The position numbers were made by a program, and so were the translations under genes. Positions 25,930 to 58,533 of a DNA stretch of 64,000 nt are shown piece after piece. The DNA comes from Leptolyngbya sp. BL-A-14. Its GTDB lineage: Bacteria > Cyanobacteriota > Cyanobacteriia > Leptolyngbyales > Leptolyngbyaceae. Where the stretch lies: positions 2,452,571 through 2,516,570 of the forward strand of contig CP166621.1 in the NCBI GenBank assembly GCA_041937185.1, read 5' to 3'. Within the stretch, counting starts at the first letter, position 1; every line of letters begins with the position of its first letter. A model generated the notes under the pieces. The model searched no databases, was not told the origin of the DNA, and was given only the letters and a program-made list of their open reading frames with translations.

Positions 25930-25980
25930 ACCAATCGGGATGACAGGATTCGAACCTGCGGCATCCTGCTCCCAAAGCAG
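25930..25980 (-). repeat. att core copy (3' 46 nt of tRNA-Pro plus 5 nt; partial, no 5' half)
   Basis: Matches 58455-58505 exactly. The sequence diverges immediately upstream of the anticodon stem. Confidence 0.8.
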
Positions 25981-26095
25981 TAGTACTGCATTACCAAGAA
26001 CAGCGCTAGACTAGGCAGAGTAGGGGCTATCAGCACTGTTGGCAGGGTAATTAACCATCCTGAAACGTGTTGTAACGTCCCTAATCAGACACTAA

Positions 26096-26117
26096 TTTAG
26101 GGCTGATTTAGGGCTGA
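26096..26117 (+). repeat. Tandem TTTAGGGCTGA x2, identical to 58412-58433 (putative integrase arm-type sites)
   Basis: Exact 22-nt identity at both island ends in the same orientation, each followed by nnCATG. Confidence 0.6.
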
Positions 26118-26120
26118 AAC

Positions 26121-27179
26121 ATGGATGAAATAGAGCGGGTAAACGAGCGCTTAAAAGCTGCGAATGTCCCAGTACGGGTACGTTTGAAAGGAAAAAACTT
26201 GGCGCTACGTGCCACTCTGCCCAAGAAACCTGGAGACGGACTCGGTCGCAAGCAGTACGACATCAGTTTGCTGCTGTCTGCTACCAAAGATGGGCTAAAG
26301 CGAGCCGAGCGGGAAGCGCACAAGCTAGCTCAGAACTTAGCCGAAGGGTCTTTTGATTGGAAGCTTTACATCGGCTCGCAGCATGACCCACTGGCGAAGC
26401 CTATCGCCCAGTTGGTGAATGAGTTTAAGGATGAGTATTGCCGCACTCACCGCATTCAAGAAGCTACCTGGCGGAATACGTGGGCAGGAACGTTTCGCAA
26501 GCTTCCCGTAAACGAGCCTATCAGTGAAGCATTGCTGCTGGCAGCCGTCCTATCGACAGAGCAGGATAGTCGCAATCGTGAGCTTACCTGTCAACGGTTG
26601 CAACGGTTCGCTGCCTTTGCAGGTTTACAGGTGGATCTAAGTAGTTACAGTGGCGCTTATGAGCCAGAACCGCGTGATATTCCAACGGATGAAGCGATCA
26701 TTGAATGGCGCGATCGCATCCCGAATCAAAGCTGGCAGTGGGTTTATGGCATGTTGGCAACATTTGGCTTAAGACCGCACGAAGCCTTTGCCTGCGAATT
26801 TATAGACCCGCTGACACTGAAGGTGCATCAGGACACGAAAACCGGGAGCCGTACCACCCGTGCCATCCTGCCAGAGTGGGCTAAACAGTGGCAGTTAATT
26901 GAGGTGAAGTGCCCCAACACGCGCAGTAAAAGCATCAAAGGCCGTGGTGGGTTGGTGAGCCGTCAGTTTGGCAGTGAGCGATACAACTTACCCTTTGTCC
27001 CCTACGATTTGCGCCACGCCTGGGCAGTGCGGGCATCGGTTGCGAAGGGGCTACCTGTGAGCACTGCCGCTGCGATGATGGGGCACAGTGTCACTACCCA
27101 TACTCGCGTCTATCATCGCTGGTTGAGCGATGCCCAAAATGAGCGGGTCTATCGATCGCTGATTCTGGGTGAAAGTTAA
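26121..27179 (+). CDS. Tyrosine-type site-specific integrase
   Basis: C-terminal catalytic region ...YDLRHAWAVRA...MMGHSVTTHTRVYHRW carrying the R, HxxR and Y residues. Confidence 0.8.
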   Translation: MDEIERVNERLKAANVPVRVRLKGKNLALRATLPKKPGDGLGRKQYDISLLLSATKDGLKRAEREAHKLAQNLAEGSFDWKLYIGSQHDPLAKPIAQLVNEFKDEYCRTHRIQEATWRNTWAGTFRKLPVNEPISEALLLAAVLSTEQDSRNRELTCQRLQRFAAFAGLQVDLSSYSGAYEPEPRDIPTDEAIIEWRDRIPNQSWQWVYGMLATFGLRPHEAFACEFIDPLTLKVHQDTKTGSRTTRAILPEWAKQWQLIEVKCPNTRSKSIKGRGGLVSRQFGSERYNLPFVPYDLRHAWAVRASVAKGLPVSTAAAMMGHSVTTHTRVYHRWLSDAQNERVYRSLILGES

Positions 27180-27511
27180 CCTACGGCTCGGAGCTTGCGA
27201 AAATGCCGCTGCAAGGCTTTTCTGCAACTCGGAATGTGATATTCCCACGTCGGGCGATCGCCCTTGCTGACGTTGCGAATTTCGCCCTTAGCCTCGCTGA
27301 ATGCCCCATCAAGCCGCAATCTCTGGAGATGCTTCGGATTCTTCACGCCTTCATTTTGAAGCGCTGTTGCTGCGACGTTAGGCTCAGCCCACCCTTCAAC
27401 ATGGGCAGGAGTGCCAGCGATATAGTCGCGAAGCTGTCGCACCTCAGATTTAAGCTGGGCCATTTCGAGCAACATTTGGGCAAGCATTTTTTCGGCTTCT
27501 TGGGTCATGAT
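27176..27511 (-). CDS. Hypothetical protein, last gene of the replication operon
   Basis: Its start at 27511 lies 1 nt after the stop of the 1259-aa gene. ORF-track frame 27176..27601. Confidence 0.4.
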   Translation of the reverse strand: MMTQEAEKMLAQMLLEMAQLKSEVRQLRDYIAGTPAHVEGWAEPNVAATALQNEGVKNPKHLQRLRLDGAFSEAKGEIRNVSKGDRPTWEYHIPSCRKALQRHFRKLRAVG

Positions 27512-30500
27512 GCCAAAGCCTCCCTTGTTAACTCTGGAATCGCAGCTTGAAGCGCTCTGAGAGGAATAATCTGCTTGATTGCCGATCGTGCTTCCTCGCA
27601 ATCAGCGGCATCCCACATCTGCCGGATATTATCCAATTCGTCTTTGGAAAACCAGGAAGGTGGAGGCGATGCAGGCGTGTTCTCTCCGTAAGGGGCAGAC
27701 TGCCCACTGTCACGATCAACAGCGGTTTCAACGCTGCCGGGTGGGGTTTCCTGTTTCTCCTCACACTTGCTCAAGAATCTTTCTGTGAGGGCTTTAAGGA
27801 TGGTCTCGCGATCGATGTCCTCTCGATTGGTGATGGCGTACTGGCACTCGCGATCGCTACGTTTACCCTTACGACTGACTTGATCAGCCTCGTAGCCTAA
27901 CTTGCGAAGCAGCTTGTTAACGGTTTGAGTTGGGGTATGCTTTGGCATGATGGTGAGCCGCAAAAAGCGGCGAAACTGGCGTGCACGGAGTAATGCCCAC
28001 TCATGGACCGCGATCGCTTCTGGTGTCGCACTATCCCACTCCAACACGTTGCCATCGATAAACGGTTGTAGTGGGCATTCGTGCAGTAGTTTCGCCTTAC
28101 CTGCAACAACTGATAAACGATGCGCAACAACAAACTGATGGCGCTTCGCAGCCGTGCTGACTTGATATAGCCAGTCCCATCGGTTGATCTGCTGAGCCGC
28201 TTCAGGATGTTGTGACAGCCAAAGCATCTCTGTCGTCTTCAAAAAGCGCCCGCGTTTGGCAATGACTGCCTTGAGAGCAAAATCCACATCGCTAAGCGGT
28301 ACGCCAGGCAATTTGTCTTCCAGCAGGCATTTCTTGGCGACTAACCTTTGCGCGCTTGTTGAACTTGGATCGTTAAGGGCACTACGAGCTAAGGATGGTG
28401 TCAAATGGGACGTGTCAGCTTCTGCCCACTCGATCGCTTTTTCTCGGTCGATTTGCTCTAGAACTGCTTCCCAGTCGTCCGCAATGTGATCGATTCTGCC
28501 CAGAACCTGCTGTGTAACTTCGTGCCCCTGGTTCTCCCAAATCGTCATTAAGTTGTCACGTAAAGCAGTTTTGCCGTAGGCTTCCCGTGCTTTGTAACGA
28601 CTGTAATGCCGTAGGTAAAAACCTAAATCTGTGGTGTGGTCGTTCCACTGCTCATCAACCCGCTGCCATTCCTGAACTAAATCAACATCATCCTGCTGAC
28701 GCTCAGCATGACTGGCAAAATCGATCAGCTTAGCGATGCCGTTTTTGTTACGCCGCAAGTCGCGCAGAATCAGGTCTGGACGAGAACCGCTGTAAAGATC
28801 ATCCTCCGTTGCAGCACGTTCGCAGATATAGCCAAAGCGAGGCACGTCAGTACGCAGTCGATCACAGAGTTGCTTCGCTTCACGTGGTTCCAAGTGAGTA
28901 AAGTGGAACGCCATCCCACTGAAGTAGCCCTCATCATCGTCAATGCTGACGCCACTTCCCATCGTTGGGCTATAGCCAAACACTCTGGGACGACGTTCGT
29001 AAAGCCACTCGGTCGGGTTTTGGATGCACTTGTGCGCCCAGTCCTCCTGTGAGTTTTCAGAGGTGATGAAGACGCAATCAATGCCCTGGTCTTGCAGCCA
29101 GCGCTCAATTTTTGCGAGCCATCGTTGAGAGTCGCTAGTGACAACTAGGTTTTCACCCTTATCTAGGCGGATTAAAATCTCTTCGCCTGTAATTGAGGGG
29201 GAATCGTAAACATAGTAGCTGCGCGGGTTGGTGACTTGCCTGGTGAACTTTAAATGTTCTACCACCTCTAGCCCAGAAGCCTCTCGAACAAAGTCAAGCT
29301 CCAGGTTCGTTAAACCATCCTCGGAAAGAACGATCCAGCCGTCCCGCTTTGCGACTTCCCGAAATAGCTGACGGGTTCGTTCGATCACGAAAGCATGGTA
29401 GTTCTTGCAGGTATCGCCGTAGGTAACTTGCTTAAACGCTTGCCCTGCTTCGTCAACCACAATCAACGGTGGATGATTGGGTAAATTCTCTGGACTGATG
29501 AGCCCGATCGATTCAAAACAGGAAGTACCTCTAAGCCGCCCTTTGTCTCTAGCAAAATCAACCGTCGATCGATGGGGAAGCCCTAAAGTGTTGCCTGATT
29601 GCAGTCCGAGTAAATTGCGTGGAGTAAAAAGCCACTCTAACCCCAGCGGATAGCGTTTGCGGTGCTGCCCTACCAGGTCTTTTAGAGCGGTAGCTGTTTT
29701 ACCAACGCCCATTGTTCCATCGACCAGAATAATCCCTGGTTTGTCCGGTAAGCGCATTAACCCTTTGGGTATGTAGCGCCCAGACTCCCGAATCGTTGGC
29801 TCGATCCTTAACCCGTTTAACTCAGCTTGGATGCGTTCAGTTTCTTCCCTCCAGCGATCGCGTCGTCGTTGTTCTGCTTCCTCCCGTGCCTGTTTGCGAT
29901 CGTCGCTTTCCAGAGACTCTAGAAGTTCTAGATCGCCCTCAAACTCAGCCGTATAGACAGCAACGGGCTTTTGTCTACGCTGCGTCGGCAGTTCGACAAC
30001 GTTCGATGGTCTCGATGGCTGTGGCTGCCAAACTGGAGGCTCTACGCCATGCAACGACAGAAAGGCTTTTGCTTGCTCGACGTACTCTTTACCGCGTGGG
30101 AAAGGTGCCCCTTTGCCATAGGTGGCATAACGCCAATAGGTGAAGGCATCAATCCGCTTTTCGTGCGTGCAGGCAGGGCAAACATAGCCCCATGTGCCTT
30201 TCTTCCCACTGATATAGGCAGAGTTACCAGAAGTCGAATCATGCCAATAGCAACGCCCTCTAGCGTGTTCGCCGCTGGGTTCAAACTGCCAGCTGTGGTT
30301 ATATAGCTCGAAAGCGTCTTTACCCAAGCGATCGCACGTTTGTCTTACTAAATCGCTGAGTTGTGTATCCTCTGATCGCCCTTCCGCCTGCAAGCGCTGG
30401 TTGCGTTGCTCGCGTCGTTGCTGCCGTTCGGCTTCCACTTGGGCTTTTGCTGCCTCATAGCCAGCTTGACCAACTTCTAGGGCAGCTTTCACCAGTGCTG

Positions 30501-31284
30501 CTTTCTCGGCTTCCCCATGCCCCTTGTGGTTCGGGAAGATTGGATAGAGAACTTCTTTCCACCAAATATCTGAGATGGTTTCAGGAAACGCCCAGCCTTG
30601 ATAAGCAAACCAGCGGCGAAACCCTGCGACGAGTTCCTCGTAGGTGTAACGATCGTGGCTGTAGCTGAGTAACCGTTGCTCTGCATCTTTCTCCTTACGG
30701 TGGAACCCAGCAATCCGCATCGGTTGGTGCAAGCGCTCGGTAACTGGATCGGACATGAAGGCGACGATCGCCAGTCGTCTCAGGTAGTTCGCTTGCTCCA
30801 GTGGTAGATGCTGAAACGCTTTGAGATGAGCATGAATAGACTTACCGCCGCTGGTCAAGCGCGTGGCGTAGTTTAAGCCAGCAATCTGCTTGAACTGCTC
30901 GTATTTTGCCCATTGATCCTCCATTGCTAGAGAATCCATTTCGATGCCAATATCATCGGTTTCAGTGACACATCCAGCTAAAGGAAACCCGTTCGGTTGA
31001 GTGGGGATATAGGTCACGCCCCCGTCTTGATTTTGGCACCGCTCGTTAAGGTGATTCCAAGCAGTACCGACAGGCTTAAGACGTTTTCGATCCTTACCTT
31101 GACCGATCGTTGCGCGGATTGTGAAACGACCTGACTTGTTGAAGCTGCCAACAAAAACGCTGGTATCACCTTGTTTCAGCCAGATCTCACTGTTGCCGTC
31201 TTCCCCTTTGGGCTGTAGGGTGCTGATGTGCGCTTTGAAAGCTTCAAAGCCGCTAAGTCCTTGTGGAATTGAGGAAGTGTTCAT
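27505..31284 (-). CDS. Primase-helicase-like replication protein: AEP-type primase domain + Zn-ribbon + P-loop NTPase + long C-terminal region
   Basis: N-terminal domain has an acidic motif DDIGIEMD and an sGGxSIHaH-like motif TSGGKSIHAHL. Zn-ribbon CYWHD...CPAC. Walker A DGTMGVGKTA and Walker B LIVVDEAG. Start overlaps the upstream helicase stop (ATGA). Confidence 0.6.
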   Translation of the reverse strand: MNTSSIPQGLSGFEAFKAHISTLQPKGEDGNSEIWLKQGDTSVFVGSFNKSGRFTIRATIGQGKDRKRLKPVGTAWNHLNERCQNQDGGVTYIPTQPNGFPLAGCVTETDDIGIEMDSLAMEDQWAKYEQFKQIAGLNYATRLTSGGKSIHAHLKAFQHLPLEQANYLRRLAIVAFMSDPVTERLHQPMRIAGFHRKEKDAEQRLLSYSHDRYTYEELVAGFRRWFAYQGWAFPETISDIWWKEVLYPIFPNHKGHGEAEKAALVKAALEVGQAGYEAAKAQVEAERQQRREQRNQRLQAEGRSEDTQLSDLVRQTCDRLGKDAFELYNHSWQFEPSGEHARGRCYWHDSTSGNSAYISGKKGTWGYVCPACTHEKRIDAFTYWRYATYGKGAPFPRGKEYVEQAKAFLSLHGVEPPVWQPQPSRPSNVVELPTQRRQKPVAVYTAEFEGDLELLESLESDDRKQAREEAEQRRRDRWREETERIQAELNGLRIEPTIRESGRYIPKGLMRLPDKPGIILVDGTMGVGKTATALKDLVGQHRKRYPLGLEWLFTPRNLLGLQSGNTLGLPHRSTVDFARDKGRLRGTSCFESIGLISPENLPNHPPLIVVDEAGQAFKQVTYGDTCKNYHAFVIERTRQLFREVAKRDGWIVLSEDGLTNLELDFVREASGLEVVEHLKFTRQVTNPRSYYVYDSPSITGEEILIRLDKGENLVVTSDSQRWLAKIERWLQDQGIDCVFITSENSQEDWAHKCIQNPTEWLYERRPRVFGYSPTMGSGVSIDDDEGYFSGMAFHFTHLEPREAKQLCDRLRTDVPRFGYICERAATEDDLYSGSRPDLILRDLRRNKNGIAKLIDFASHAERQQDDVDLVQEWQRVDEQWNDHTTDLGFYLRHYSRYKAREAYGKTALRDNLMTIWENQGHEVTQQVLGRIDHIADDWEAVLEQIDREKAIEWAEADTSHLTPSLARSALNDPSSTSAQRLVAKKCLLEDKLPGVPLSDVDFALKAVIAKRGRFLKTTEMLWLSQHPEAAQQINRWDWLYQVSTAAKRHQFVVAHRLSVVAGKAKLLHECPLQPFIDGNVLEWDSATPEAIAVHEWALLRARQFRRFLRLTIMPKHTPTQTVNKLLRKLGYEADQVSRKGKRSDRECQYAITNREDIDRETILKALTERFLSKCEEKQETPPGSVETAVDRDSGQSAPYGENTPASPPPSWFSKDELDNIRQMWDAADCEEARSAIKQIIPLRALQAAIPELTREALAS

Positions 31285-33044
31285 TTGACCACCTCCCGCG
31301 CATCTGATAGGGCAAGGTTTAACTGCTGCTGCAAGGCTTCTAAATCAACCCCTGCAACCTTATCAGGATCGAGCGCTTCAGCTTTGGCGATATATGCTGC
31401 TTTAACCGTCTCCCATGAGGCGTTGCGATCGACTCCCAGCGTTTCATACCAGGGTGTAATCTGAAGATCAACTTCGCCCAGTTCCAGCGTCAAATGATAG
31501 CTAATCCACTGCTGCGACCATTTGCTTGCCTGATTGCAATGCCGAAACAGGTAGTTAACGAATGCTGCTTTACGGCTAGGACTATAGCGTTGGGTCAGGC
31601 AGGCATGACGCATCCACTCACCTGGTGGGTTGTGCCCAAACTCACTCACAAAATGGGCGATCGCTTCGTCAGGTGAGCGATCGGACTCGTAAGCCTGACG
31701 CTTCAATTGCCGCAACAGTTTGATTTTTTGCCGTGTCAGAGTATCGGCAAACTCGTTCAGTTGGGCTAGGACTAGCGCTTCCTGCTGGGGTTCATCTGGT
31801 TGCGCATCACCTGTAAACTCATGCCCACAATGCGGGCAAATCTGGGCGAAGACGGTCACTTCTAGCTGACAACCAGGACAGGTCTTGGTAAGCGGCTGTA
31901 CGTCATCATCCTGAACTGGCTGACTGATGTCGTAATCCTGGAACCCCATCGGGTTGCCAAACCGCTTCAAATTGCCGCCAAAATCGAGCAGGAAGTAATC
32001 TGTTTTACCTGGATAAGGACGGCTACCACGTCCAGCTGTCTGCTGAAACAATGCCCGTGACTTGGTGGCTCGAACATACAGAATCGCGCTGATTGCAGGT
32101 AGATCAAACCCAGCCGTTAGGCAACCGACGGAGCAAATCACTTTGGTGATTCCCCGCCGAACACGCTCGATGATTGCCTCGCGTTCATGGGCAGGCGTTG
32201 ACCCGACGATCACTTCAGCCGCAATGCCGCGCTGATTGAAGCGATCGCATTGCCGTCGCGCTTGCTCAACGGTTGCCCCTACCATCAGCGTTGGGCGATC
32301 CGGGCAAAGCCTCAACCATTCGTCAATAACGTGATCCAGTGCTTCTGCTTTACAGGCTTGTTCGGCGATGTCCGAATCAACGAATGTGCCACCTCTAACG
32401 CGAAGCGTTTCTAGATCAATCGCACCTGCTAGGTGAAAGCCGCGACAGGAGACAGCGCCGCCACGCTTAATGATCTCTGGTGGCTGTGGTCCAAGAACAG
32501 CTTTGTCGTACCGTTGCCCTAGACATTCTTTAGAGCTTAAGCGCCAGGGTGTAGCCGTTAGACCGATTTTAATGGCATTGGGAAAGAAGTTATCGATCGC
32601 GGCGTAGGCTGATTGGAAGGCGCTGATATGCGCTTCATCCGCCACAATCACATCAATACAGCCCAGCAGAGCGCCTAAGTCTTGACCACGACGCAGCCTG
32701 CTGGAGATGGTCTGAAGTGAGGCAACGATAACGGGTGCCGCCTCGTCCACTGGGCGATCGCCTTGCAGGATGGTGCAGTGAACGCCAAAGGATTGTAGAG
32801 TGCGAGCCGTTTGCTCTAGCAGCACATTGAGCGAGACCAGAAACACGCAGCGTCTACCCTTGCTGATAGCATCCTGCATAATCTGGGCGGCGATGACTGT
32901 TTTCCCGGCACCCATGACGGCAATCATCAAGACACGTAGGCATTTGGAGCGGATCAGGGCGTAAACCCCAGCAATCATGGCGATTTGGTAATCGCGCAAC
33001 TGAATTGTCTGCTGCTGCGGAATGGTAATGGTTTGGGCGATCAT
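31281..33044 (-). CDS. ResIII-like SF2 (DEAH) helicase with C-terminal Zn-ribbon and degenerate J-domain-like tail
   Basis: Motif I AVMGAGKT, motif II VIVADEAH, motif VI QTAGRGSR, Zn-ribbon CPGCQ...CPHCGH, and tail WYETLGV...AAYIAKAEALDPDK. Confidence 0.7.
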   Translation of the reverse strand: MIAQTITIPQQQTIQLRDYQIAMIAGVYALIRSKCLRVLMIAVMGAGKTVIAAQIMQDAISKGRRCVFLVSLNVLLEQTARTLQSFGVHCTILQGDRPVDEAAPVIVASLQTISSRLRRGQDLGALLGCIDVIVADEAHISAFQSAYAAIDNFFPNAIKIGLTATPWRLSSKECLGQRYDKAVLGPQPPEIIKRGGAVSCRGFHLAGAIDLETLRVRGGTFVDSDIAEQACKAEALDHVIDEWLRLCPDRPTLMVGATVEQARRQCDRFNQRGIAAEVIVGSTPAHEREAIIERVRRGITKVICSVGCLTAGFDLPAISAILYVRATKSRALFQQTAGRGSRPYPGKTDYFLLDFGGNLKRFGNPMGFQDYDISQPVQDDDVQPLTKTCPGCQLEVTVFAQICPHCGHEFTGDAQPDEPQQEALVLAQLNEFADTLTRQKIKLLRQLKRQAYESDRSPDEAIAHFVSEFGHNPPGEWMRHACLTQRYSPSRKAAFVNYLFRHCNQASKWSQQWISYHLTLELGEVDLQITPWYETLGVDRNASWETVKAAYIAKAEALDPDKVAGVDLEALQQQLNLALSDAREVVK

Positions 33045-34570: not shown

Positions 34571-34674
34571 CGCTAAAACCATTTCAATTGCTTTGCAACG
34601 CTCTGCCTTAATATCTGAAACTCTTAAACCCGCTCAAAATTGACGAGCATCGATTAATTTAGGCATTCTCACAC

Positions 34675-35253: not shown

Positions 35254-35259
35254 GGTGAA

Positions 35260-48451: not shown

Positions 48452-48561
48452 CGGAAGTAGGTGTTTTGGGTTCTGTGATCTCAAGTGAAACCTGATCGCT
48501 CAAGCGCTCTAAACGCCGTTCTAATTGGCCGTTCGCTGATTGATTAGCAAGGCTAACTGGA

Positions 48562-49035: not shown

Positions 49036-49063
49036 TAACCCTGTCGCACTGGCAGGGCTTTTC
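49036..49063 (+). terminator. Second copy of the CCCTGTCGCACTGGCAGGG + T-run hairpin
   Basis: A 24-nt identical core to 44159-44182. Confidence 0.45.
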
Positions 49064-49292
49064 ATGCAAACGCAAACGCATCCAGAGTTTTTAGAGTCAG
49101 CTTTCAAGACTATGGATGACTGAAGCGATCGTGCTCAGTTAGGTTTTCCACCGTCTGGTGGAAAAGTCTCAAACCCTATTCCGAGTTTTCCGAGTCGAGT
49201 TCTAAGACTAAGGATGACCGGAGCGATCGCGACGAGTGCCCAGGCGCAATACCAGAAGGCGAAACCCATACGATCGGCGTTGATCCGTGCCC

Positions 49293-50793: not shown

Positions 50794-51006
50794 ATGAGTC
50801 AGCAGCCGATGGTCGGGTGTCGAGTGCCCTCTGCTTGGCATGAGGAAATTATAGCCATCACTGAGGCAACCGGGCAGAGCAGCAGTGAAGTGGTGAGAGA
50901 GGCGATCGCTCTCTACCTAAAGAAATCGAAAGCGGTTACAGTGCGATCACGCCTGGACGACTTGGAGCAACGGTTGAACAAGCTGACGCTACTGGTAACG
51001 CAGTGA
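50794..51006 (+). CDS. Ribbon-helix-helix (CopG-family) DNA-binding protein
   Basis: ...SSEVVREAIALYLKK... RHH helix pattern, 70 aa. Confidence 0.5.
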   Translation: MSQQPMVGCRVPSAWHEEIIAITEATGQSSSEVVREAIALYLKKSKAVTVRSRLDDLEQRLNKLTLLVTQ

Positions 51007-51140
51007 TATCCAGGAAACTGAAAATCTGAGTGCGATACCGAATGAGACAAAATGAAGTGAACCCACCAATTCGACAGGGAATTGAAGAATTTAAGGTTTC
51101 GCTTCATTCCTTTTATAAAAAAGTCACAGGGACGCTGAAT

Positions 51141-52052: not shown

Positions 52053-52126
52053 AAAATCAAAATGAGTGGAGTTTTCTTAAAGGAGAATTGATAGACATGA
52101 CGTGAGATTCTGAGTTGCTCAGTGCT

Positions 52127-52921
52127 TCACAAAGTAAACAAGGTCTTGAAAGTTTTGACTTTAGCGGTATCAATGCCACAGTCCAGCTTTGTGAGCGGGG
52201 TCAAACTCTTCCACTTACTCCTGTTCGCACTGGCAATCAGATCAGAGACGGCTTCAGGGTCGATCGTGTCAAAGCCCCCAATTTTATAGGTGTTTAGATA
52301 GTTCAAGCGCTCAAAGATTTCGGCTTTCGATGCCTGCTTGATGCTGATGACGGACGGTGGTGCTGGCGGTGGCGGCGGCGGAGTCAAGTAAAAGACAGCG
52401 CTCAAAGCATCGAGCTTCTTGCCCTTCGTGATACCGCACCCAAGCTTAGTAATGGGTGTGAAGTCTTGCCAGGTACTGCGATCCACAGCCGCAATCTTAC
52501 TGGCAGCGATCGTGGCATCGACTGTTTTCAAGGGACTGCCAGGCTGATTAACAAGATGCTTCAAAACCGACTTGATTGTCTCTCTAGAAGCAGTTGTGAA
52601 ATTCACTTTGGGAGTCACTTCTCCAGCGAGAATGCGAGCCTGTTCAATGTCTGGCGTGCTGGACTTAATGACAAGGCACCAAAGTTCCTCTAGTCCTGCT
52701 TGAGTCGCAACGACATAGACAAAATGGTTGGTAACTGCCCTGTACGTATAATCTTCGACCTCTTCCACTAATAACGGCATCCAGTTATGCCCGCCAGTTT
52801 TGAGGAGCGCCTCAGCAGCAGCAGCAACAATGTACTCAGGGGGAGCTGCATAATCGTCAGTGGGTAGAATGCTGTCGATCGGCAGACACATGAGTTGCCC
52901 GACGTTATCAAAATCACTCAT
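52127..52921 (-). CDS. ParB-like N-terminal domain protein with a duplicated C-terminal ~45-aa repeat
   Basis: N-terminus LMCLPIDSILP...MPLLVEEVEDYTYRAVTNHFVYVVA is ParB/Srx-like but degenerate. Internal repeats RSTWQDFTPITKLGCGITKGKKL and RSKWKSLTPLTKLDCGIDTAKVK are separated by a PPPPPPAPP linker. Overlaps the upstream ParA-fusion gene by 8 nt. Confidence 0.45.
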   Translation of the reverse strand: MSDFDNVGQLMCLPIDSILPTDDYAAPPEYIVAAAAEALLKTGGHNWMPLLVEEVEDYTYRAVTNHFVYVVATQAGLEELWCLVIKSSTPDIEQARILAGEVTPKVNFTTASRETIKSVLKHLVNQPGSPLKTVDATIAASKIAAVDRSTWQDFTPITKLGCGITKGKKLDALSAVFYLTPPPPPPAPPSVISIKQASKAEIFERLNYLNTYKIGGFDTIDPEAVSDLIASANRSKWKSLTPLTKLDCGIDTAKVKTFKTLFTL

Positions 52922-54278
52922 TTAGAAAATACTCCCTGGCGAGTTCAAGATAATAGGCGTGAATTTTCTTGTTTTTGAGCACAGCAGGTACGCGTGCAAA
53001 AGCAGAACTGGAAACAACGGCATAGTCTGGGAGGTTGAACACGGTTTTGTCCACGTTGCCAGGTCGGATCTTAGGAAAAAAATACGGCAACATATTAATC
53101 CCATCTGCTGGGTTTGCCTTTAAAATTCGCTCAATCTCCTCGCGTGCCATATCGATTGAGCGACCAGCAGCAGGACTGCCATTGAAGAAAATGGGAAGCG
53201 CGATCGGCCCACCATCTTGCCTTAACGTTTTGACCTTGGGCACAAACTCCTGCACAACTCTGGCAGCATTATGGAGCGATGACAGATCATCATGGCGAGT
53301 GGGAATCAGTACAGCATCAGCTGCATAAACCCCACTCTGACTAAAAAAAACCCATTGTGTCGGACAGTCAATAAAGATGTAGTCATACTCGTTGCTAAAC
53401 GGTTGCAGCAAATCTCTGAGCCGAGCGGACGCTTTCTGTACACGGGCTTGGGTATCTTGGGTAAACGCTTCCATACCCAGATCTGCTGGTATTACATCAA
53501 AAATGTGATACACCTTCCCAGCTCTTAGAGTCACTTTATACGGCACGATGGTCGAGCGGATATCTAAAGCTCTGTCTTTTAAGCACTCAGACAGCTTGAT
53601 GTTGTTTGGCTGTAGCCCTAAAGATGTTGTCAAATCACGCTGGGAGTCGAAGTCAACCAATAGTACTTTCTTCTTCTCAGCTGCTAAAGCCGATGCCAAG
53701 TTGATAGTCGTCGTCGTTTTACCTACGCCACCCTTGTTGTTGTAGACACAAACACTGAGGCTGCGAGGAGGATTGTCAATCAGTTTCTTGATTTGATCAA
53801 CGACAGACTTAATATTCTCTCCAGTAATTTCAATGCATTTCGTTGCAGGCACAACAGCCTTGTTGTGATGTCTAAAAAGCTGAATATGAGTTGAGTTAGT
53901 AATAATACCCCAGTGGGCAGTCTTGCCTTTGGGGGAGAGCAGATACCGTTTTAGTTGTGCTCTCGTTGATAGGTATTGTCTAGAGCCCTCTGCTAGATTG
54001 ATGGGGCTGCCTCCACCTGTAAAGCGCCCTTTAATTTCAACCATTAAGAAAGGATCGGCTTTAGTAAAGCTGAAGTTGTCATCAGCTGTGTTCTTGCGAG
54101 CAGCAAAATCAACACTGTCGCTTCCTGCTCCAGTCGCCAATTCACCTACGCGCTCATTTGCGCTAAAGCCCAGCGCTTCCAACAAGTAAGGGACAAAGTG
54201 ACTACCCACGTCAGCTTCTGTTGCCTGCGGAGGAATATTGGCTAAAACTTTGCTCCAATCCATCAACGCTGACCCCAC
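52914..54278 (-). CDS. Fusion of an HSDR_N-like PD-(D/E)xK nuclease-fold domain to a ParA/MinD-type Walker ATPase
   Basis: N-terminal ~150 aa: EADVGSHFVPYLLEALGF...DSVDF...DPFLMVEIKG, a restriction-enzyme N-terminal-like D...E.K pattern. C-terminus has the deviant Walker A YNNKGGVGKTTTT, LLVDFDSQ and IFIDCP of ParA. Confidence 0.6.
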   Translation of the reverse strand: MGSALMDWSKVLANIPPQATEADVGSHFVPYLLEALGFSANERVGELATGAGSDSVDFAARKNTADDNFSFTKADPFLMVEIKGRFTGGGSPINLAEGSRQYLSTRAQLKRYLLSPKGKTAHWGIITNSTHIQLFRHHNKAVVPATKCIEITGENIKSVVDQIKKLIDNPPRSLSVCVYNNKGGVGKTTTTINLASALAAEKKKVLLVDFDSQRDLTTSLGLQPNNIKLSECLKDRALDIRSTIVPYKVTLRAGKVYHIFDVIPADLGMEAFTQDTQARVQKASARLRDLLQPFSNEYDYIFIDCPTQWVFFSQSGVYAADAVLIPTRHDDLSSLHNAARVVQEFVPKVKTLRQDGGPIALPIFFNGSPAAGRSIDMAREEIERILKANPADGINMLPYFFPKIRPGNVDKTVFNLPDYAVVSSSAFARVPAVLKNKKIHAYYLELAREYFLNE

Positions 54279-54396
54279 TCAGAATACGTGGCTAACTCTT
54301 GCGTGATCGCAAGAGCAATTTCTTTTCTAAAGTGCCCTATTTATGAGGGGGATAACAGTAAGTTCACAGGAGCATGACATTAACTTGTTGAACACT

Positions 54397-54588
54397 TCAA
54401 AGGTTGTGCTCAGTATCACGTAAAGCCGCTTCTTTGATTGCAGCTCTCAGCCACTCTGCCTGGTTCGGTCGCGATCGAACGTATTCATAAAGCTCTTTTG
54501 GAAGAAACACCGGAATCGGCTTTTCAGCCAATGGCTCTGGTCCTGAAGGTTTGAAACGGGTTAGATAATCAGCACGTTGCTCAGTCAT
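54397..54588 (-). CDS. Ribbon-helix-helix protein upstream of the ParA-fusion gene
   Basis: 63 aa with IPVFLPKELYEYV...AEWLRAAIKEAAL. Confidence 0.45.
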   Translation of the reverse strand: MTEQRADYLTRFKPSGPEPLAEKPIPVFLPKELYEYVRSRPNQAEWLRAAIKEAALRDTEHNL

Positions 54589-54682
54589 GGCTTAGTTGTA
54601 ACTTGAAGAGCATAATGCTGTCTTCTAAATGAAGTCACTACGCCATTTCTTTAAGTTGCCCCGCCACTCTAAGCCTTTGTCA

Positions 54683-55417
54683 TCAATAGCTGCGTCCATT
54701 ACCACCGTTGTAGAAAGCTGCTCTTTCGGTAGAGCTTAGCGTCCGGGTCCAGATTGCTAAGGTGTCAAGATAGCCGTTCAGGCGTTGGTTGTCGCTGAAG
54801 TTGACATCATTGCCAATCACTAGAACGTTGCTGGCTGCGTACAAACCAGTACCGGAGAACGCACTGGATTGCACCAATGTACCGTTGACTTCCAGGTTCA
54901 CGGTTTTGGCTTCAGCATCGAACCAGCCAATGCAGCAAAGCCATGTGTTGGTGGGTGGATCAGTCAAACCCGCCAGTGTGACTCCCGCTCCGGTTTGATC
55001 GCCCACATAGAAAGCTAGGCTGCCATTGTAGTAATTTAAGCCACAATGCCGTCCAAAGTTAGTATTAGAGCGATTGATAATGGCTGTTCCGCCCGCTGAG
55101 GGAACCTGCCATGCTTGGACATTAATCCAGCAAGCGAAAGTAAAGCTTTGGCTAATAGTGAACGCTGTAGCCGTGTATAACGCTGACGAAGTGCTGATGT
55201 TGAAGTAGTTAAATGATCGCCCATCCCAGCAGTGACCAGGTTTGCCATTCTCTACGATATTGCCTGACCCGCCAGCATTGTCTGTAGGCAAGTGGTAGCC
55301 ATTGGGTGAACTGTCGTTATAGTTCTCGAAGTCATACCATGCAAGCAATCCGGTTTTGAGGATGTCAGTTGCGCTCCCACCAAAGCCAGCAGGTTTGATA
55401 AACAACGGCATCGGCAT
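54683..55417 (-). CDS. LamG/concanavalin-A-like lectin-fold protein (paralog of the 55646 product)
   Basis: Gly/Ser/Thr/Asn-rich beta-sandwich-type composition. Aligns with its paralog at ...WxCxGWFDAEAKTVNLEVNGTL and ...WHYVCVSRSGTSTMQGWIDGT. Confidence 0.45.
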   Translation of the reverse strand: MPMPLFIKPAGFGGSATDILKTGLLAWYDFENYNDSSPNGYHLPTDNAGGSGNIVENGKPGHCWDGRSFNYFNISTSSALYTATAFTISQSFTFACWINVQAWQVPSAGGTAIINRSNTNFGRHCGLNYYNGSLAFYVGDQTGAGVTLAGLTDPPTNTWLCCIGWFDAEAKTVNLEVNGTLVQSSAFSGTGLYAASNVLVIGNDVNFSDNQRLNGYLDTLAIWTRTLSSTERAAFYNGGNGRSY

Positions 55418-55446
55418 AAGCTTAAATCTCCAAAACTTAAATGTTC

Positions 55447-55624
55447 TCTAAAACTCAACACGAGGGTGTATTTGCTTCATTTCGGCATGAATTTTGGCAA
55501 TAAGCTGGGTATCGGCAGGGTCAGTTTCAGCGAGCTGACGTTTCAACTCATCCAGGCGATTACGCCGATCGCGCATCTTGTTCAAAATTGCTTGTGTCTC
55601 ACTGCTTAATTTCGTTATCTTCAT
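55447..55624 (-). CDS. Small coiled-coil protein (58 aa) between the LamG paralogs
   Basis: Hand translation: MKITKLSSETQAILNKMRDRRNRLDELKRQLAETDPADTQLIAKIHAEMKQIHPRVEF. It is below the ORF-track size cut-off. Confidence 0.35.
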
Positions 55625-55645
55625 ATCTTTTAGCTGGCATTGACA

Positions 55646-56368
55646 TCAAGAGTTGGGGAACGCAGCATCCGGGACAGCCGATCCGTCTTTGCTCTGCCCT
55701 GTGGTTAGTCGAATCTCGTCCATAAAACCAGGAAAGAAGGCTGAGCCTGAAGCATCAACGCCAATACGAGCCTGAGAAAGCACTGTGGCGTAATTAGAAG
55801 CGGTTGAAGTGTTTAAGCGTCGAGTGCCATCAATCCAACCTTGCATCGTTGATGTACCTGATCGGCTCACGCAAACGTAGTGCCACTCGTTCAACGAGAA
55901 GCCACCCGTACCGCTGGCACCACCCGTATAGGAATCATCGAGATAAAACCCGTAAGTTGAATCCAGATACAGTTGCAAGATTGAGTTACCGAAGCTGGGC
56001 GAAGTTGGTTGCAAGTTGAGCCAGCTATAACGACCTGCTGCTGTCATGTAGATCCACGCTTCATAGATCCAGTTGCCGCTGCCAGGGCTAAGAGCAGCAC
56101 TGTTAGGCAGGATTAAGTAATCGGTTGAACCATTGAACGCGATCGAGCTGCTGCCGTACTTGAATTGAGCAGTGCTCGTAACTGGAGTGCCGCCAGGGGC
56201 AATATTGTGGACATAACTACTGTTATCGGTGAATGTCGAGCCACCGTTACTGCCCTCGCTATGCAGCAACAGCCTGACGTTGCTATATGAAACACCATCA
56301 GCCGTATAGCCACCACCACCTGCCGGTGGTGTACCTGATCCAAGCATCGTACCTGGGAAAGTAAACAT
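55646..56368 (-). CDS. LamG/concanavalin-A-like lectin-fold protein
   Basis: See the 54683 entry. Confidence 0.45.
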   Translation of the reverse strand: MFTFPGTMLGSGTPPAGGGGYTADGVSYSNVRLLLHSEGSNGGSTFTDNSSYVHNIAPGGTPVTSTAQFKYGSSSIAFNGSTDYLILPNSAALSPGSGNWIYEAWIYMTAAGRYSWLNLQPTSPSFGNSILQLYLDSTYGFYLDDSYTGGASGTGGFSLNEWHYVCVSRSGTSTMQGWIDGTRRLNTSTASNYATVLSQARIGVDASGSAFFPGFMDEIRLTTGQSKDGSAVPDAAFPNS

Positions 56369-56559
56369 CTAGCCAAGTCCTTTCTTGAATGTGTATGAGG
56401 TTTTCGATCGCTGCTCATTATCATGAGGTTTCCAATCGGCGAGCCTGGTTATGAGGTTTCCAATCTTCATCGTGATTGGTCAAAACTTTACGCTGCCTTC
56501 CATGCTCTACTTTGAAGCGCGAGTAAATGTTTTGAGTGGTTTCATTAACGCCCCTCAGC

Positions 56560-57057
56560 ATGAAGACTTCTCATTGCGCGATCGTCCTTCTCCTCTCTGC
56601 TGCCTCCATTTTGCCCTGTCTGAACGCTTCTGCACGATCAAAAGAGCCTGACTACCCTTGCTATATGCGAACAGTCAATGGGCGTGTGGTTGACCTCACC
56701 GCAAGCTTATGCAGGTACAAAGCGGTAGCAGTGCCGATCGCGGCTGCCACAGACACTCAAAGCATTACCGAGCCCGAATCACCCTTTATCACCAGCTACA
56801 AACAACGGGCGAGACGGGTTGAGAATGTTGCTGCTGCTAAATATTTGTTAGCCCAAGCTGATACCAACTCAGAAAAGCTACTGAGCATTGGGTCAAGCGT
56901 TTGTCGGGGCGTAAATGTCAAGTTAAGCCGCCCAGAGCTAGTCACGATCATCGAGAAGGCTTTGCCAACTGATAACGAGAATGCAGTGCTGCATTATGCC
57001 GGGTTACAGCAGATTAGCATTTTGCTCGATATGGCAGAAGCAGGTGAGTGCCCCTAG
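56560..57057 (+). CDS. Secreted protein carrying the EPDYPCYM..V.GR..DLT..LCR motif (paralog of the 59530 product)
   Basis: Signal peptide MKTSHCAIVLLLSAASILPCLNASA followed by KEPDYPCYMRTVNGRVVDLTASLCR. ORF-track frame begins at 56536. Confidence 0.45.
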   Translation: MKTSHCAIVLLLSAASILPCLNASARSKEPDYPCYMRTVNGRVVDLTASLCRYKAVAVPIAAATDTQSITEPESPFITSYKQRARRVENVAAAKYLLAQADTNSEKLLSIGSSVCRGVNVKLSRPELVTIIEKALPTDNENAVLHYAGLQQISILLDMAEAGECP

Positions 57058-57368
57058 ACCTCACTTGCGGTAGCGCACTGCTAATCTGCAAAAGCTTTTT
57101 TAGCTTGCCTGATTAAAGTTTCTGGGCATGTATCCCGATACTCAGCTTTAGTTTTATCTACCCCATCGGAAAAGTCGGATTCAATCATCCTTATGTGAAT
57201 AGTTCGTTTGCGCAGTAGTCTCTTGAAAAAATTCAGAAATTTTCAAAATAGCGATCGACCAACTCAAGCCGTCGCCGATCGAGTCGTGTGAGGAAAGCTC
57301 TTGCCCGCCGCATTTCGGCACCATACCACCCAGTCTTAAGAGCATTCTGAGCACTGGTAGCCTTGCCA

Positions 57369-58037
57369 TCAGCAGTGATTGGTCCCGTTGACGACTGCCA
57401 CGGTTGCCAGTTCTGAATCAGCTCGCGCTGTCGCTGTCGTGCTTCCGGTGTCCATCGGGGCATAGGGTGAAGCCTCTAGTGATGTGGCTGCATGGGACTC
57501 TTGCTCAACTTTCAGTTGGTTGACCTGCTTATCAACGTAGTTTTTGATGAACTGGCTCGGCTTCTTAGGATTGCGAATGTTATCCAGCGTCGTGATTGTG
57601 CGGCGGGATTGCTCCTGGCAGCGGAGTGCTAATTCGAGCAGGCGCGATCGAAGAGTCGTATTTGGCGCACTGTGAGACGCCGTAGCCATGTTGTAAAACA
57701 GAAAATCCAGCGTCGTGATTTGCACTGCTAACCGAGCCTCTAACTCTTTTTGGCTAAAGCCTTCGCCTGTCTGCAAGGCATGAAACGTGGCAATGAGGTT
57801 GTCTGGAGCCGCACCGGGGTCATTAAGTGCAGCAGCAGCTTGGAAATAAAAACTGGTACGCAAACGGGTATCGTTCTGGGCTGACTCACTAGCCTCAACA
57901 GACTCGCCATCAAGCGTCACTTGTAATTGGCGTTTGACTTGCTGCTGTGCTTGCTGCTGCTTTTGAGCCTGGTTTTCTGCCTGCTTACGTTTAGCTATCT
58001 GCAAAAGAAGATCGTGCGACGTTGGTTTTTTTGACAT
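57369..58037 (-). CDS. Hypothetical Gln-rich protein at the island's right end
   Basis: 222-aa ORF whose start is embedded in three tandem TTTTTTGACA 10-mers. Confidence 0.35.
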   Translation of the reverse strand: MSKKPTSHDLLLQIAKRKQAENQAQKQQQAQQQVKRQLQVTLDGESVEASESAQNDTRLRTSFYFQAAAALNDPGAAPDNLIATFHALQTGEGFSQKELEARLAVQITTLDFLFYNMATASHSAPNTTLRSRLLELALRCQEQSRRTITTLDNIRNPKKPSQFIKNYVDKQVNQLKVEQESHAATSLEASPYAPMDTGSTTATARADSELATVAVVNGTNHC

Positions 58038-58411
58038 TTTTTGACATTTTTTGACGTTTTCTAGCGCTTTCTGCCGATGACCCTCTTTGTCGGTTCACAA
58101 AAAACTCAAATGAGTATCACCTATGAGTTGTGCGATCGTTGTTTCAGCGATCCACTTCACGTCAGCAGACAGCTTGTTAATGAGTACCTAGAAGCTTCAT
58201 CGAACTAGGCAACGGACAACAAGATCGCGGCGTAATATTCTTTTGCCACAAGCTAGCTGAACAACTGCTCTCTTCTCTTTACAACAGACAGTTCAAGTAT
58301 AGACAGTGCCAACATAGGCAGACACACAAAGATCGTGTCATCAACTCGTATGGATAAACATACTTAGCGAGTTGTTGACACCGCTAGGGTGAAATATTCT
58401 CTTTTACTGGT

Positions 58412-58433
58412 TTTAGGGCTGATTTAGGGCTGA
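58412..58433 (+). repeat. Tandem TTTAGGGCTGA x2, identical to 26096-26117
   Basis: Exact identity with the left-end copy. It lies 22 nt from the att core. Confidence 0.6.
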
Positions 58434-58459
58434 TTCATGACCCTGATCCCCAAAACCAA

Positions 58460-58533
58460 TCGGGATGACAGGATTCGAACCTGCGGCATCCTGCTCCCAA
58501 AGCAGGCGCGCTACCAAGCTGCGCTACATCCCG
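58460..58533 (-). tRNA. tRNA-Pro (anticodon UGG), CCA not encoded
   Basis: Hand-folded cloverleaf: acceptor CGGGATG/CATCCCG, D-stem GCGC/GCGC, anticodon stem CCTGC/GCAGG with loop TTTGGGA, T-loop TTCGAAT, 74 nt. Confidence 0.9.

Follow-up and report, generated by a model that had tools for sequence, protein, structure and literature searches.

A tRNA-Pro-integrated plasmid-like element in Leptolyngbya sp. BL-A-14 with possible parallels to actinomycete integrative elements

We analysed a 64-kb stretch of DNA from the cyanobacterium Leptolyngbya sp. BL-A-14 (GenBank assembly GCA_041937185.1, contig CP166621.1, positions 2,452,571–2,516,570; hereafter the window, in whose coordinates positions are given) and found in it a 32.5-kb segment bounded by a repeated piece of a tRNA gene. 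We conclude with high confidence that this segment is an integrative plasmid-like element, which entered the tRNA-Pro(UGG) gene through tyrosine-integrase recombination at the anticodon stem-loop. Our confidence is moderate that its excision is aided by a 110-amino-acid (aa) protein, its replication performed by a replication protein (Rep) and a helicase, and its partition by a ParA-type ATPase. More tentatively, a module built around an ATPase of the FtsK-HerA superfamily may move the double-stranded circle between cells, by analogy with the integrative and conjugative elements of actinomycetes (AICEs), a step to which we give somewhat less than an even chance. Taken as a whole, an integrative plasmid working like an AICE, including the proposed steps of excision, replication and transfer, is in our judgement quite probably the best explanation of the segment. 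The element belongs to a family that resides at tRNA-Pro or tRNA-Val genes of Leptolyngbya-like cyanobacteria.

Boundaries, integrase and tRNA target

The 51-mer ACCAATCGGGATGACAGGATTCGAACCTGCGGCATCCTGCTCCCAAAGCAG is present in two exact copies in the window, at 25930–25980 and 58455–58505, both on the plus strand; no third copy was found there with up to three mismatches allowed, and the chance expectation for such a repeat was 0 (100 shuffles). The unique DNA together with one core copy amounts to 32,525 bp, in agreement with the original prediction, made from the letters of the window alone, that perfect 51-bp direct repeats bound an element of about 32.5 kb. ARAGORN identified a single tRNA in the window, a tRNA-Pro(UGG) on the minus strand (58460–58533), which Rfam scored at 69.6 bits against a gathering score of 29; the Rfam scan returned no match besides this tRNA. 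The right repeat (attR core) is part of this intact gene. It is made up of tRNA bases 58460–58505 (46 nt) and the 5 nt downstream of the tRNA and, read on the tRNA strand, holds the anticodon stem minus its first base, the loop, the variable loop, the T arm, the 3′ acceptor strand and the discriminator. The left repeat (attL core) is a displaced 3′ fragment of the same 46 nt, again with the 5 nt, from which the 5′ half of the tRNA is absent, with unrelated sequence (TAGTAC...) in place of the D-arm half. The composition of the right copy and the truncation of the left copy had both been predicted, as had the position of a tyrosine integrase gene 140 bp inside the left repeat. The arrangement is that of a tRNA-integrated element, with an intact tRNA, the integration target, at one end and an identical displaced 3′ fragment (51/51) in direct orientation at the other, where the integrase gene lies just inside the repeat. 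The octamer HIP1 (GCGATCGC), already noticed within the element, has 30 occurrences in it, and the flanks (31.4 kb) have 26. A psbA gene, encoding the D1 protein, is found at 24034–25116, 0.8 kb to the left of attL.

The integrase (26121–27179, plus strand) is a protein of 352 aa with XisA/XisC-type N-terminal domains, 100% identical to one encoded on the 7.19-Mb chromosome of BL-A-14. The domain assignment was taken from the precomputed annotation of the identical protein, which lists Pfam XisAC_N (PF27551) and XisAC_2nd (PF27132) without a weak mark (E ≤ 1e-5), as is also the case for all 120 listed integrase homologues. In PHROGs the protein matched phrog_1 (integrase, 3.6e-12), and its match to Pfam Phage_integrase reached 18.6 bits, under the cut-off of 27.1. 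The catalytic set R218, K240, Y295-x-x-R298, H322 and Y331, with a tyrosine at the position usually occupied by the first histidine, is intact and invariant in an alignment of 19 homologues (43–89% identity). We found 468 homologues, and those with a name come mainly from Leptolyngbya, Phormidium, Stenomitos, Myxacorys and similar thin filamentous cyanobacteria. A sequence search against solved structures gave no match for the integrase, Rep or the ATPase.

Directly ahead of the integrase gene (int) is a tandem pair of the 11-mer TTTAGGGCTGA (26096–26117, plus strand), which ends 3 nt before the ATG and is a candidate arm-type site and int operator. A second tandem pair on the same strand lies 21 bp inside attR (58412–58433), and an exact search of the 64 kb returned just these four copies, arranged as two pairs near the element ends. 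Excision would bring the two pairs to either side of the core in the circle, the usual placement of arm-type sites. The start codon of every related int is likewise directly preceded by a tandem 11-bp repeat, the sequence of which varies with the integrase (ATTTAGGGAAG, ATTTGGGGAAG or TTTTGGTTA).

Convergent with int is an open reading frame (ORF) of 110 aa (27176–27508, minus strand), whose start follows the stop codon of Rep directly and whose end overlaps the 3′ end of int by 4 nt. It is present together with int in every int-bearing locus read, at 55–94% identity and regardless of the type of Rep. Its position and this co-occurrence make it a candidate excisionase and, probably, the directionality factor of the element. 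The AlphaFold 2 (AF2) model of the protein (pLDDT 85) shows a long helix and a winged-helix-like domain; a Foldseek search with this model returned nothing significant, and the match with the highest probability (0.63) was the putative excisionase 2kvv.

We read eleven related integrase loci including duplicates, which correspond to nine distinct related elements. Each of the nine has, approximately 140 bp upstream of int, a 3′ fragment of a tRNA with its end at the anticodon stem. The fragment is from tRNA-Pro(UGG) in Leptolyngbya sp. GGD, L. boryana, Stenomitos frigidus and three metagenome contigs, and from tRNA-Val(UAC) in Phormidium sp. FACHB-592 (L005 9830–9880), whose integrase is 88–89% identical to that of the window, as well as in another lineage (L076 2790–2840), with an integrase 51% identical. 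Within this one integrase family there is an apparent switching of target between Pro and Val. Common to the Pro and Val fragments are the anticodon stem and the first bases of the variable loop (CTGC-loop-GCAGGATG), with a shared GGATG. In the usual model for tRNA-targeting integrases, core binding takes place at the stem arms and the overlap region corresponds to the 7-nt loop, and the stem and variable-loop bases which the two kinds of fragment share would, by analogy, fit this model.

The sister element of Stenomitos frigidus ULC18 (L079) has approximately 84% DNA identity to the window over positions 25934–32921, which cover the core, int, the 110-aa ORF, Rep and the helicase. The homology stops at the tRNA end, at position 25934, and the flank of the sister element is a sulfate transporter gene, not psbA. 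In L. boryana and Leptolyngbya sp. GGD the chromosomal flank is approximately 95% identical up to the tRNA-Pro fragment and different elements are found beyond it, the occupant having a Prim-Pol-type Rep in L. boryana and a DUF3854-type Rep in Leptolyngbya sp. GGD. Because of these two comparisons, we place the left boundary at the core and conclude that members of the family inserted independently; the different flanks and different occupants lend indirect support to mobility and are the nearest substitute for an empty site that we obtained. Sister elements at different loci and turnover at a single locus also show that the family has been active recently. The equal spacing between fragment and int in other genomes, next to unrelated chromosomal flanks, upholds the original claim that the element integrated site-specifically into the 3′ part of tRNA-Pro.

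The empty site was sought in several ways. Exact-protein look-ups of the flank genes gave no record for the psbA-side ORF or for TruB, and the 241-aa protein of the right flank and the integrase had exact matches solely on short (0.9–1.7 kb) Logan contigs of SRR32600072. A scan of 185,579 species genomes for TruB returned relatives of at most 89% identity, and the closest contigs stop 0.5–1.5 kb past truB, as expected if multi-copy psbA breaks assemblies; in the remaining TruB relatives neither psbA nor tRNA-Pro follows truB, and synteny is not kept. The attL/attP junction pattern CATCCTGCTCCCAAAGCAGWWGTAC was present in one 1.5-kb metagenome contig, which starts inside the core, and in none of the IMG/VR contigs. 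Int-bearing contigs of 25–57 kb were considered as possible free circles and rejected, since all of them are integrated copies or are broken at the tRNA repeat. Near-identical DNA was not found in PLSDB plasmids, where the tRNA segment alone matches, distantly.

Replication, partition and plasmid relatives

Rep (27505–31284, minus strand) is a protein of 1259 aa with a CyRepA1-like helicase region, as identified by NCBIfam and by tblastn; it also matched phrog_4913 ('replication'). Its residues 517–1133 matched the NCBIfam model CyRepA1 (NF042913) with an E-value of 2.6e-45 and 155.4 bits, over profile positions 3–592 of 595, and tblastn matched this region to genes annotated as CyRepA1 on 68 plasmids of cyanobacteria. 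The role of CyRepA proteins in plasmid replication has experimental support (PMC10079941). In the N-terminal region of Rep, motifs resembling those of the archaeo-eukaryotic primases (AEP) and a zinc ribbon can be recognised by eye. The type of N-terminal domain varies among relatives: L. boryana has a Prim-Pol domain, Leptolyngbya GGD and Stenomitos a DUF3854 domain. Together with the 110-aa ORF, Rep and a superfamily 2 (SF2) helicase of 587 aa (31281–33044, minus strand) form the minus-strand operon of the left arm. The helicase contains ResIII and Helicase_C domains (Pfam), a zinc ribbon and a DnaJ-like tail, and matched phrog_16 (DNA helicase) at 6.8e-73. The pairing of helicase and Rep is also seen in two of the related loci (L074 and L079); the Rep of L074 has no BLAST similarity to the Rep of the window, though the adjoining helicase is 60% identical.

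The partition pair (52127–54278, minus strand) consists of a ParA-type ATPase (52914–54278), recognised by Pfam AAA_31 (6e-33), phrog_164 (ParA-like, 8e-41) and NCBIfam ParA/RepA, and of an overlapping protein of 264 aa (52127–52921). The latter had no family match in Pfam, PHROGs or NCBIfam, and we infer from its position that it is the partition partner. ParA has an N-terminal extension of 170 aa without a Pfam match, in which inspection by eye showed D...E-x-K (DFAAR...MVEIKG), a pattern that recalls a PD-(D/E)xK nuclease-like domain. Pfam searches with isolated segments (the N-termini of Rep and ParA, the 110-aa ORF and the C-terminus of the ATPase) gave nothing significant. The replication module and segregation-like genes of the original prediction are thus present as a CyRepA1-like Rep and a ParA, with relatives on cyanobacterial plasmids.

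Plasmid relatives are also found for other parts of the element. A plasmid-like Stenomitos frigidus contig of 32.7 kb (PVWK01000016.1, L012) carries ParA, a DUF3854-type Rep, a ribbon-helix-helix (RHH) protein, the whole rightward module described below and defence-type cargo; no integrase was present in the 21.5 kb of it that were read. Many close homologues of the ATPase are on contigs of 17–80 kb, and many of those contigs measure 25–45 kb. A paralogue of the ATPase (76%) is encoded on a 288-kb plasmid of BL-A-14 itself. Distant homologues (37–50% over the motor) are found on 35 PLSDB plasmids, all from filamentous genera (Nostoc, Tolypothrix, Microchaete, Calothrix, Kovacikia and Pseudanabaena), whereas Rep-type matches on plasmids extend to unicellular genera such as Synechococcus, Acaryochloris and Gloeothece. 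In the plasmids of Nostoc and Tolypothrix the ATPase closes a run of small genes adjoining ParG and CyRepA1.

Pfam and PHROGs detected no capsid, portal, terminase, tail or lysis family among the ORFs of the element, in line with the earlier remark that capsid, terminase and portal genes were missing. By tblastn, the integrase, Rep and the ATPase had no match in 50,697 INPHARED phage genomes, nor had the integrase and the ATPase in 2.9 million IMG/VR contigs. With the PHROGs structural families, INPHARED and IMG/VR all empty, the prophage reading was rejected. Because its relatives are plasmids and it has no match in the phage collections, we regard the element as an integrated member of a plasmid family. 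A relaxase, a VirB4-type ATPase or a VirD4-type coupling protein was not found in any ORF with Pfam, NCBIfam or PHROGs, and the sole match related to a type IV secretion system (T4SS) was a weak one of NCBIfam TraD (E 0.005) to the P-loop of the ATPase. The element had been described as looking like an integrative plasmid or an integrative and conjugative element (ICE): the plasmid backbone holds, and an ICE in the T4SS sense does not, as no relaxase or T4SS gene is detectable.

The ATPase module and its possible role in transfer

The rightward module (35683–41203, all genes on the plus strand) is shared, at 47–88% identity, with the Phormidium element (L005) and with two Stenomitos contigs (L012 and L013). 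Its first gene encodes a protein of 187 aa (35683–36246) which is 88% identical in L005 and 49% identical in L012 and has no Pfam or PHROG match. Three further proteins are kept in all three relatives: a 181-aa protein (37096–37641) with one transmembrane (TM) segment, a proline-rich linker and a bacterial SH3 domain (Pfam SH3_3, 1.2e-5); a single-TM protein of approximately 121 aa (37631–37996; 62–78% identical) with a conserved C-terminal Cys pair, the start of which was set from its homologues of 120–127 aa; and a helical protein of 221 aa (37987–38652; 71–73% identical), the best-conserved module protein after the ATPase. The 221-aa protein has a weak profile link (hhalign probability 46%) to a 238-aa protein at the same position on the Nostoc plasmid pn5, and the profile comparison of the small module proteins with proteins of the Nostoc/Tolypothrix plasmids gave no further link. 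A 122-aa protein with three predicted TM segments, also conserved (38880–39248), overlaps the start of the ATPase gene. The last gene (40925–41203) encodes a 92-aa protein that is 59–65% identical at the same position in both Stenomitos contigs.

The ATPase itself (39245–40798) is a protein of 517 aa, composed of two N-terminal hydrophobic segments, a coiled and PQ-rich linker, a P-loop motor (approximately aa 172–386), a Q-rich linker and a winged helix (approximately aa 444–514). Its Pfam matches, to DUF87, AAA_10 and FtsK_SpoIIIE, are all below threshold. An exhaustive profile search collected 1323 cluster representatives, and since its diverse members most often matched DUF87 (45 of 73), this is an unnamed family of the FtsK-HerA superfamily. 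In the AF2 model of residues 166–517 (pLDDT 86) the last 70 residues follow the order helix-strand-helix-helix-strand-strand of a winged helix, and the top Foldseek matches in the PDB were the FtsK motor on double-stranded DNA (dsDNA; 6t8b, E 1.6e-6), TcpA of pCW3 (6o1x) and EccC/EssC. The original prediction had spoken of a possible coupling ATPase; an ATPase is indeed encoded, and its fold is closest to FtsK, TcpA and EccC rather than to VirD4. In three sister proteins (P0170, P0171 and P0174, including that of the Phormidium element, L005 19373–21043) the central motor is swapped for another P-loop domain, while the membrane part at the N-terminus and the winged helix at the C-terminus are still 60–80% identical. 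Two of the three swapped motors carry a precomputed Pfam FtsK_SpoIIIE annotation (PF01580) and the third an FtsK-domain name in UniRef, and this natural motor swap argues for an equivalent function.

Directly downstream of the ATPase gene, and ahead of the gene for the 92-aa protein, are approximately seven short repeats (ACCYGNCAC; 40811–40911, plus strand; period 11/23 in Tandem Repeats Finder), a candidate clt-like recognition locus. Six of the 19 plus-strand matches to this motif in the window fall within 80 bp at the array. Arrays with different motifs occupy the same position after the ATPase in both Stenomitos contigs (ACCCGTCAC) and in the Nostoc/Tolypothrix plasmids (L001 and L002; GACACC, up to approximately 12 copies), which makes five elements in all with a repeat array at this place. 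The recognition repeats of TraB are 8-mers, and the gamma domain of FtsK reads KOPS.

In the cycle that we propose, the integrase would bind the inverted repeat of the anticodon stem (CTGC...GCAG) as core and the TTTAGGGCTGA pairs as arm sites, strand exchange would occur in or beside the 7-nt anticodon loop, and the element's own copy of the tRNA 3′ part would regenerate the gene. The 110-aa partner would steer excision as directionality factor, and the excised circle would replicate from the Rep/helicase operon and be partitioned by ParA. The membrane-anchored ATPase, with its winged helix guided to the array at 40811–40911, may then pump the double-stranded circle into neighbouring cells, a form of transfer that would parallel TraB/clt in AICEs such as pSAM2, which also uses a tRNA-Pro.

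Several features of AICEs (PMC2440964, PMC3429521) have a counterpart in the element: insertion by a tyrosine integrase into the 3′ part of a tRNA gene (tRNA-Pro for pSAM2); a small partner gene beside int; a replication initiator of their own, here predicted to be the CyRepA1-like Rep with its helicase, and of prim-pol type in some AICEs; one FtsK-like ATPase that is the sole transfer protein to be recognised, here FtsK-like in fold and a candidate for this role, with small membrane proteins and a cis repeat locus, here likewise a candidate; and hosts that grow as filaments. In Streptomyces plasmids and AICEs the ATPase is TraB, a membrane-anchored FtsK-like protein with a C-terminal winged helix and an adjacent clt locus of 8–9-bp repeats, an arrangement that the ATPase and its array resemble, and FtsK-type conjugation has been linked to hyphal growth (PMC3429521). 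Surveys have found TraB in Actinobacteria only and TcpA in Firmicutes only (PMC3548315). The element differs from AICEs in its host, a member of the Cyanobacteriota with a diderm envelope, in its size (32.5 kb against 9–24 kb), in the XisA/XisC-domain type of its integrase, in its CyRepA1-like Rep and in its ParA system; moreover, its ATPase is not a member of Pfam FtsK_SpoIIIE and has no homology to TraB at the sequence level. Homologues of Kor, Pif and Spd were not detected in the element, in which Pfam found neither a GntR/Kor nor a Nudix/Pif family.

Other known systems resemble parts of the element. The CyRepA1-type plasmids (pSYSA, pAQ1 and the 30–55-kb plasmids of Nostocales such as pCC7120delta) have a homologous Rep helicase region and partition genes, and those of Nostocales also have the ATPase at the 37–50% level over the motor, the downstream array and a similar run of small genes before the ATPase. 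They are, however, free replicons without a tRNA-targeting integrase beside Rep and carry MobC and a MOBP relaxase, neither of which was detected here, and the Rep of the element, which scores under the family cut-off, has a different N-terminal domain. The XisA/XisC elements in nifD and hupL are likewise bounded by short direct repeats and have a recombinase with XisAC_N and XisAC_2nd domains at one end (PMC4874684). In the heterocystous cyanobacteria that harbour them, they split a protein-coding gene, leave the chromosome only while a heterocyst differentiates, and are not known to carry genes for replication or transfer. The element described here, in contrast, leaves its tRNA target intact, has a full plasmid backbone and belongs to a non-heterocystous genus, Leptolyngbya forming no heterocysts. 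Prochlorococcus tycheposons, with which the element was compared by general architecture, are of approximately 10–20 kb, have their own integrase lineage and hallmark genes, lack a partition system and an FtsK-like ATPase, and have been proposed to travel in vesicles or hijacked capsids. TcpA of the Clostridium plasmid pCW3, the second-best structural match, is a membrane-anchored plasmid ATPase of the FtsK clade, but it works with the relaxase TcpM and a multi-protein Tcp apparatus.

A number of observations speak against the AICE-like interpretation. The 155.4 bits of Rep are under the curated CyRepA1 cut-off of 200, which makes the protein homologous but places it outside the curated family, and residues 1–500 have no Pfam match, so that no DUF3854 (Toprim-like) domain was detected. 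The fold of the 110-aa protein has no significant similarity to any excisionase in Foldseek. The match of the ATPase to FtsK_SpoIIIE reaches 18.3 bits for a cut-off of 24, the commonest weak match in its family is DUF87 (HerA; 45 of 73 diverse members), and its N-terminal hydrophobic segments are moderate (Kyte-Doolittle 1.41 and 1.27), those of many homologues being stronger. The repeat array could alternatively be a centromere, a set of iterons or an operator. On Nostocales plasmids a homologous ATPase is found together with MobC and a MOBP relaxase, and unnamed viral proteins in BFVD resemble the ATPase-plus-domain fold (E 6e-10). Finally, the flank look-ups, the TruB scan and the junction patterns revealed no empty attB, attP junction or circular contig.

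If the ATPase were instead a coupling protein of the TcpA/VirD4 kind, which passes relaxase-bound single-stranded DNA to a secretion apparatus encoded elsewhere, the element would be mobilizable without being capable of self-transfer. We consider this unlikely, though a contender to be taken seriously: TcpA is the second-best structural match, weak matches to NCBIfam TraD and Pfam TrwB_AAD_bind occur in the ATPase family, and MobC and MOBP relaxase genes are carried by the Nostocales ATPase plasmids, MOB-suite typing 26 of the 35 ATPase-bearing plasmids as mobilizable. Such Mob genes fit a coupling-protein role as well as a TraB-like one, and the other 9 of the 35 plasmids are without a relaxase. 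Neither in the element nor in the visible parts of its Leptolyngbya-type relatives was a relaxase, MobC or a T4SS component detected; in addition, a winged helix with an adjacent array is the arrangement of FtsK-gamma and TraB and is unusual for coupling proteins, and the motors of the sister elements have been swapped for a domain annotated as FtsK-type. It is also conceivable that the module serves vertical inheritance in the filament, where a plasmid-encoded pump of the FtsK kind would clear closing septa of plasmid copies or distribute the copies across them, and that the element spreads only by other routes (vesicles, transformation or lysis). FtsK and SpoIIIE do this for chromosomes and the fold matches, the module is confined among plasmids to filamentous genera, it co-occurs with classical partition genes, and vesicle transport has been proposed for tRNA-integrating elements in Prochlorococcus. 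Nevertheless, we hold this role to be quite unlikely: partition is already covered by the ParA system, the SH3b protein and the other envelope proteins suggest a trans-envelope function, and we know of no plasmid-borne FtsK that serves segregation only.

That the segment is an immobilised genomic island, integrated once and now fixed, with perfect repeats that reflect selection on the tRNA, we judge to be improbable. No excised form or empty site was found, and the density of HIP1, equal to that of the chromosome, implies long residence in HIP1-rich hosts. Against this, the left copy is free of tRNA selection yet identical at 51 of 51 positions, including the 5 nt past the tRNA; the catalytic residues of the integrase and both arm-repeat pairs are intact, Rep, ParA and the ATPase are full-length ORFs, and the family has been active recently, as the sister elements at different loci and the turnover at one locus show. 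Least credible, with a very small chance of being right, is the reading as a prophage or phage satellite that derives from a virus of unrecognised type, such as one that contains a membrane and packages its DNA with an FtsK-HerA ATPase, and whose capsid genes would be hidden among the unassigned ORFs. Most ORFs are indeed without a family assignment, FtsK-HerA ATPases package the DNA of PRD1/PM2-like viruses, the LamG proteins of the right arm resemble domains of phage structural proteins, the P-loop has a weak match to the terminase family phrog_2666 (9e-4), and the similar folds in BFVD include a Nodularia phage protein. The structural and lysis families, INPHARED and IMG/VR were nonetheless empty, the relatives, which are plasmids, carry ParA, ParM, ParG and Mob genes, and the cargo ORFs are not conserved in relatives, which is unexpected for structural genes.

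A tRNA-integrated island is in itself ordinary. The combination of a CyRepA-type plasmid, a XisA/XisC-type integrase and an FtsK-like module confined to filamentous cyanobacteria is not described in the literature that we searched, and it joins topics that have been studied separately, namely CyRepA replicons, XisA/XisC-type tRNA-targeted integration and a widespread uncharacterised ATPase module. Native gene transfer in cyanobacteria is poorly understood and the biology of their plasmids is recent, CyRepA proteins having been defined in 2023. We put forward as a speculation, more doubtful than probable, that filamentous cyanobacteria (Leptolyngbya-like and Nostocales) harbour a large family of plasmids and tRNA-integrating episomes which travel as dsDNA through one membrane-anchored FtsK-HerA-superfamily translocase, its C-terminal winged helix reading a short-repeat 'clt' just behind the translocase gene, and that XisA and XisC of heterocyst formers descended from the integrases of these integrative plasmids and not from phages. 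If true, this would be an independent diderm counterpart of the TraB conjugation of Streptomyces, so far reported solely from mycelial Actinobacteria; the evolutionary origin of the XisA/XisC-type recombinase is an open question (PMC4874684). Should the module work as the AICE-like reading proposes, it would represent a second independent case for FtsK-type conjugation as an adaptation to filamentous growth (PMC3429521) and would identify a route of horizontal transfer in filamentous cyanobacteria, and the int, att and Rep parts would provide a tRNA-Pro integration vector and a replicon for Leptolyngbya-type strains. Should the module not be TraB-like, the element still belongs to a well-delimited new family of integrative plasmids.

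Cargo, right arm and accessory genes

The variable cargo (41234–51006), annotated with Pfam, comprises ORFs of unassigned function, among them a paralogous pair, a 235-aa ORF, a GAF-PAS-HisKA-HATPase-REC hybrid kinase (45587–48451) and an RHH_1 protein (50794–51006), and none of its genes is present in any related locus compared. The two paralogues, of 196 aa (42368–42958) and 307 aa (43010–43933), are adjacent and share an N-terminal domain (MDxSSxGTET..FIDAVF...YWV...PYAH[YH]A); both genes lack a match in the libraries searched and a counterpart in relatives. In the Stenomitos contig PVWK01000016.1 the conserved module is followed by a run of Trypco2, CHAT, VMAP, AAA_5 and FGE-sulfatase genes (L012 14796–21548), a candidate defence system.

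On the minus strand of the left half of the element are a 267-aa protein (33779–34582), with no match in Pfam, PHROGs, NCBIfam or PADLOC, and a two-gene module (34675–35469) of an RHH_5 protein (69 aa, 35260–35469; Pfam 1.7e-12) and a Uma2 nuclease-fold protein (192 aa, 34675–35253; Pfam 1.9e-12), the latter matching the PADLOC candidate PDC-S17 at 8.8e-63. This RHH-Uma2 module recurs in four relatives (L010, L013, L076 and L079). A tandem array of CGTTCCAAAG (3.6 copies, 35627–35663) lies in the promoter region from which the RHH_5 gene and the rightward module diverge.

The right 7.6 kb of the element (50903–58505) contain no HIP1 GCGATCGC site and have a GC content of 47–48%, compared with 30 sites (approximately 1.2 per kb) and approximately 52% GC in the other 25 kb. 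The absence of HIP1 and the lower GC content suggest that this arm was acquired later or came from a HIP1-poor source. It encodes a 303-aa TM protein, the 264-aa protein, ParA, two LamG proteins and proteins of 173 and 222 aa. The LamG-fold proteins (Laminin_G_3; 244 and 240 aa; 54683–56368, minus strand; Pfam 3e-20 and 3e-13) have PHROG matches confined to the LamG domain of large phage proteins. The Q-rich protein of 222 aa (57369–58060, minus strand) had no family match, and its start codon and the sequence just upstream are covered by three repeats (3.4 copies) of TTTTTTGACA at 58027–58060; like the CGTTCCAAAG array, these are possibly operators or iterons. The secreted 173-aa protein (56536–57057), inside the element, and a chromosomal protein of 95 aa (59530–59817), 1 kb past the tRNA, are paralogues with the common motif EPDYPCYM(R/K)xVxGRxxDLTxxLCR, one on each side of the attachment site.

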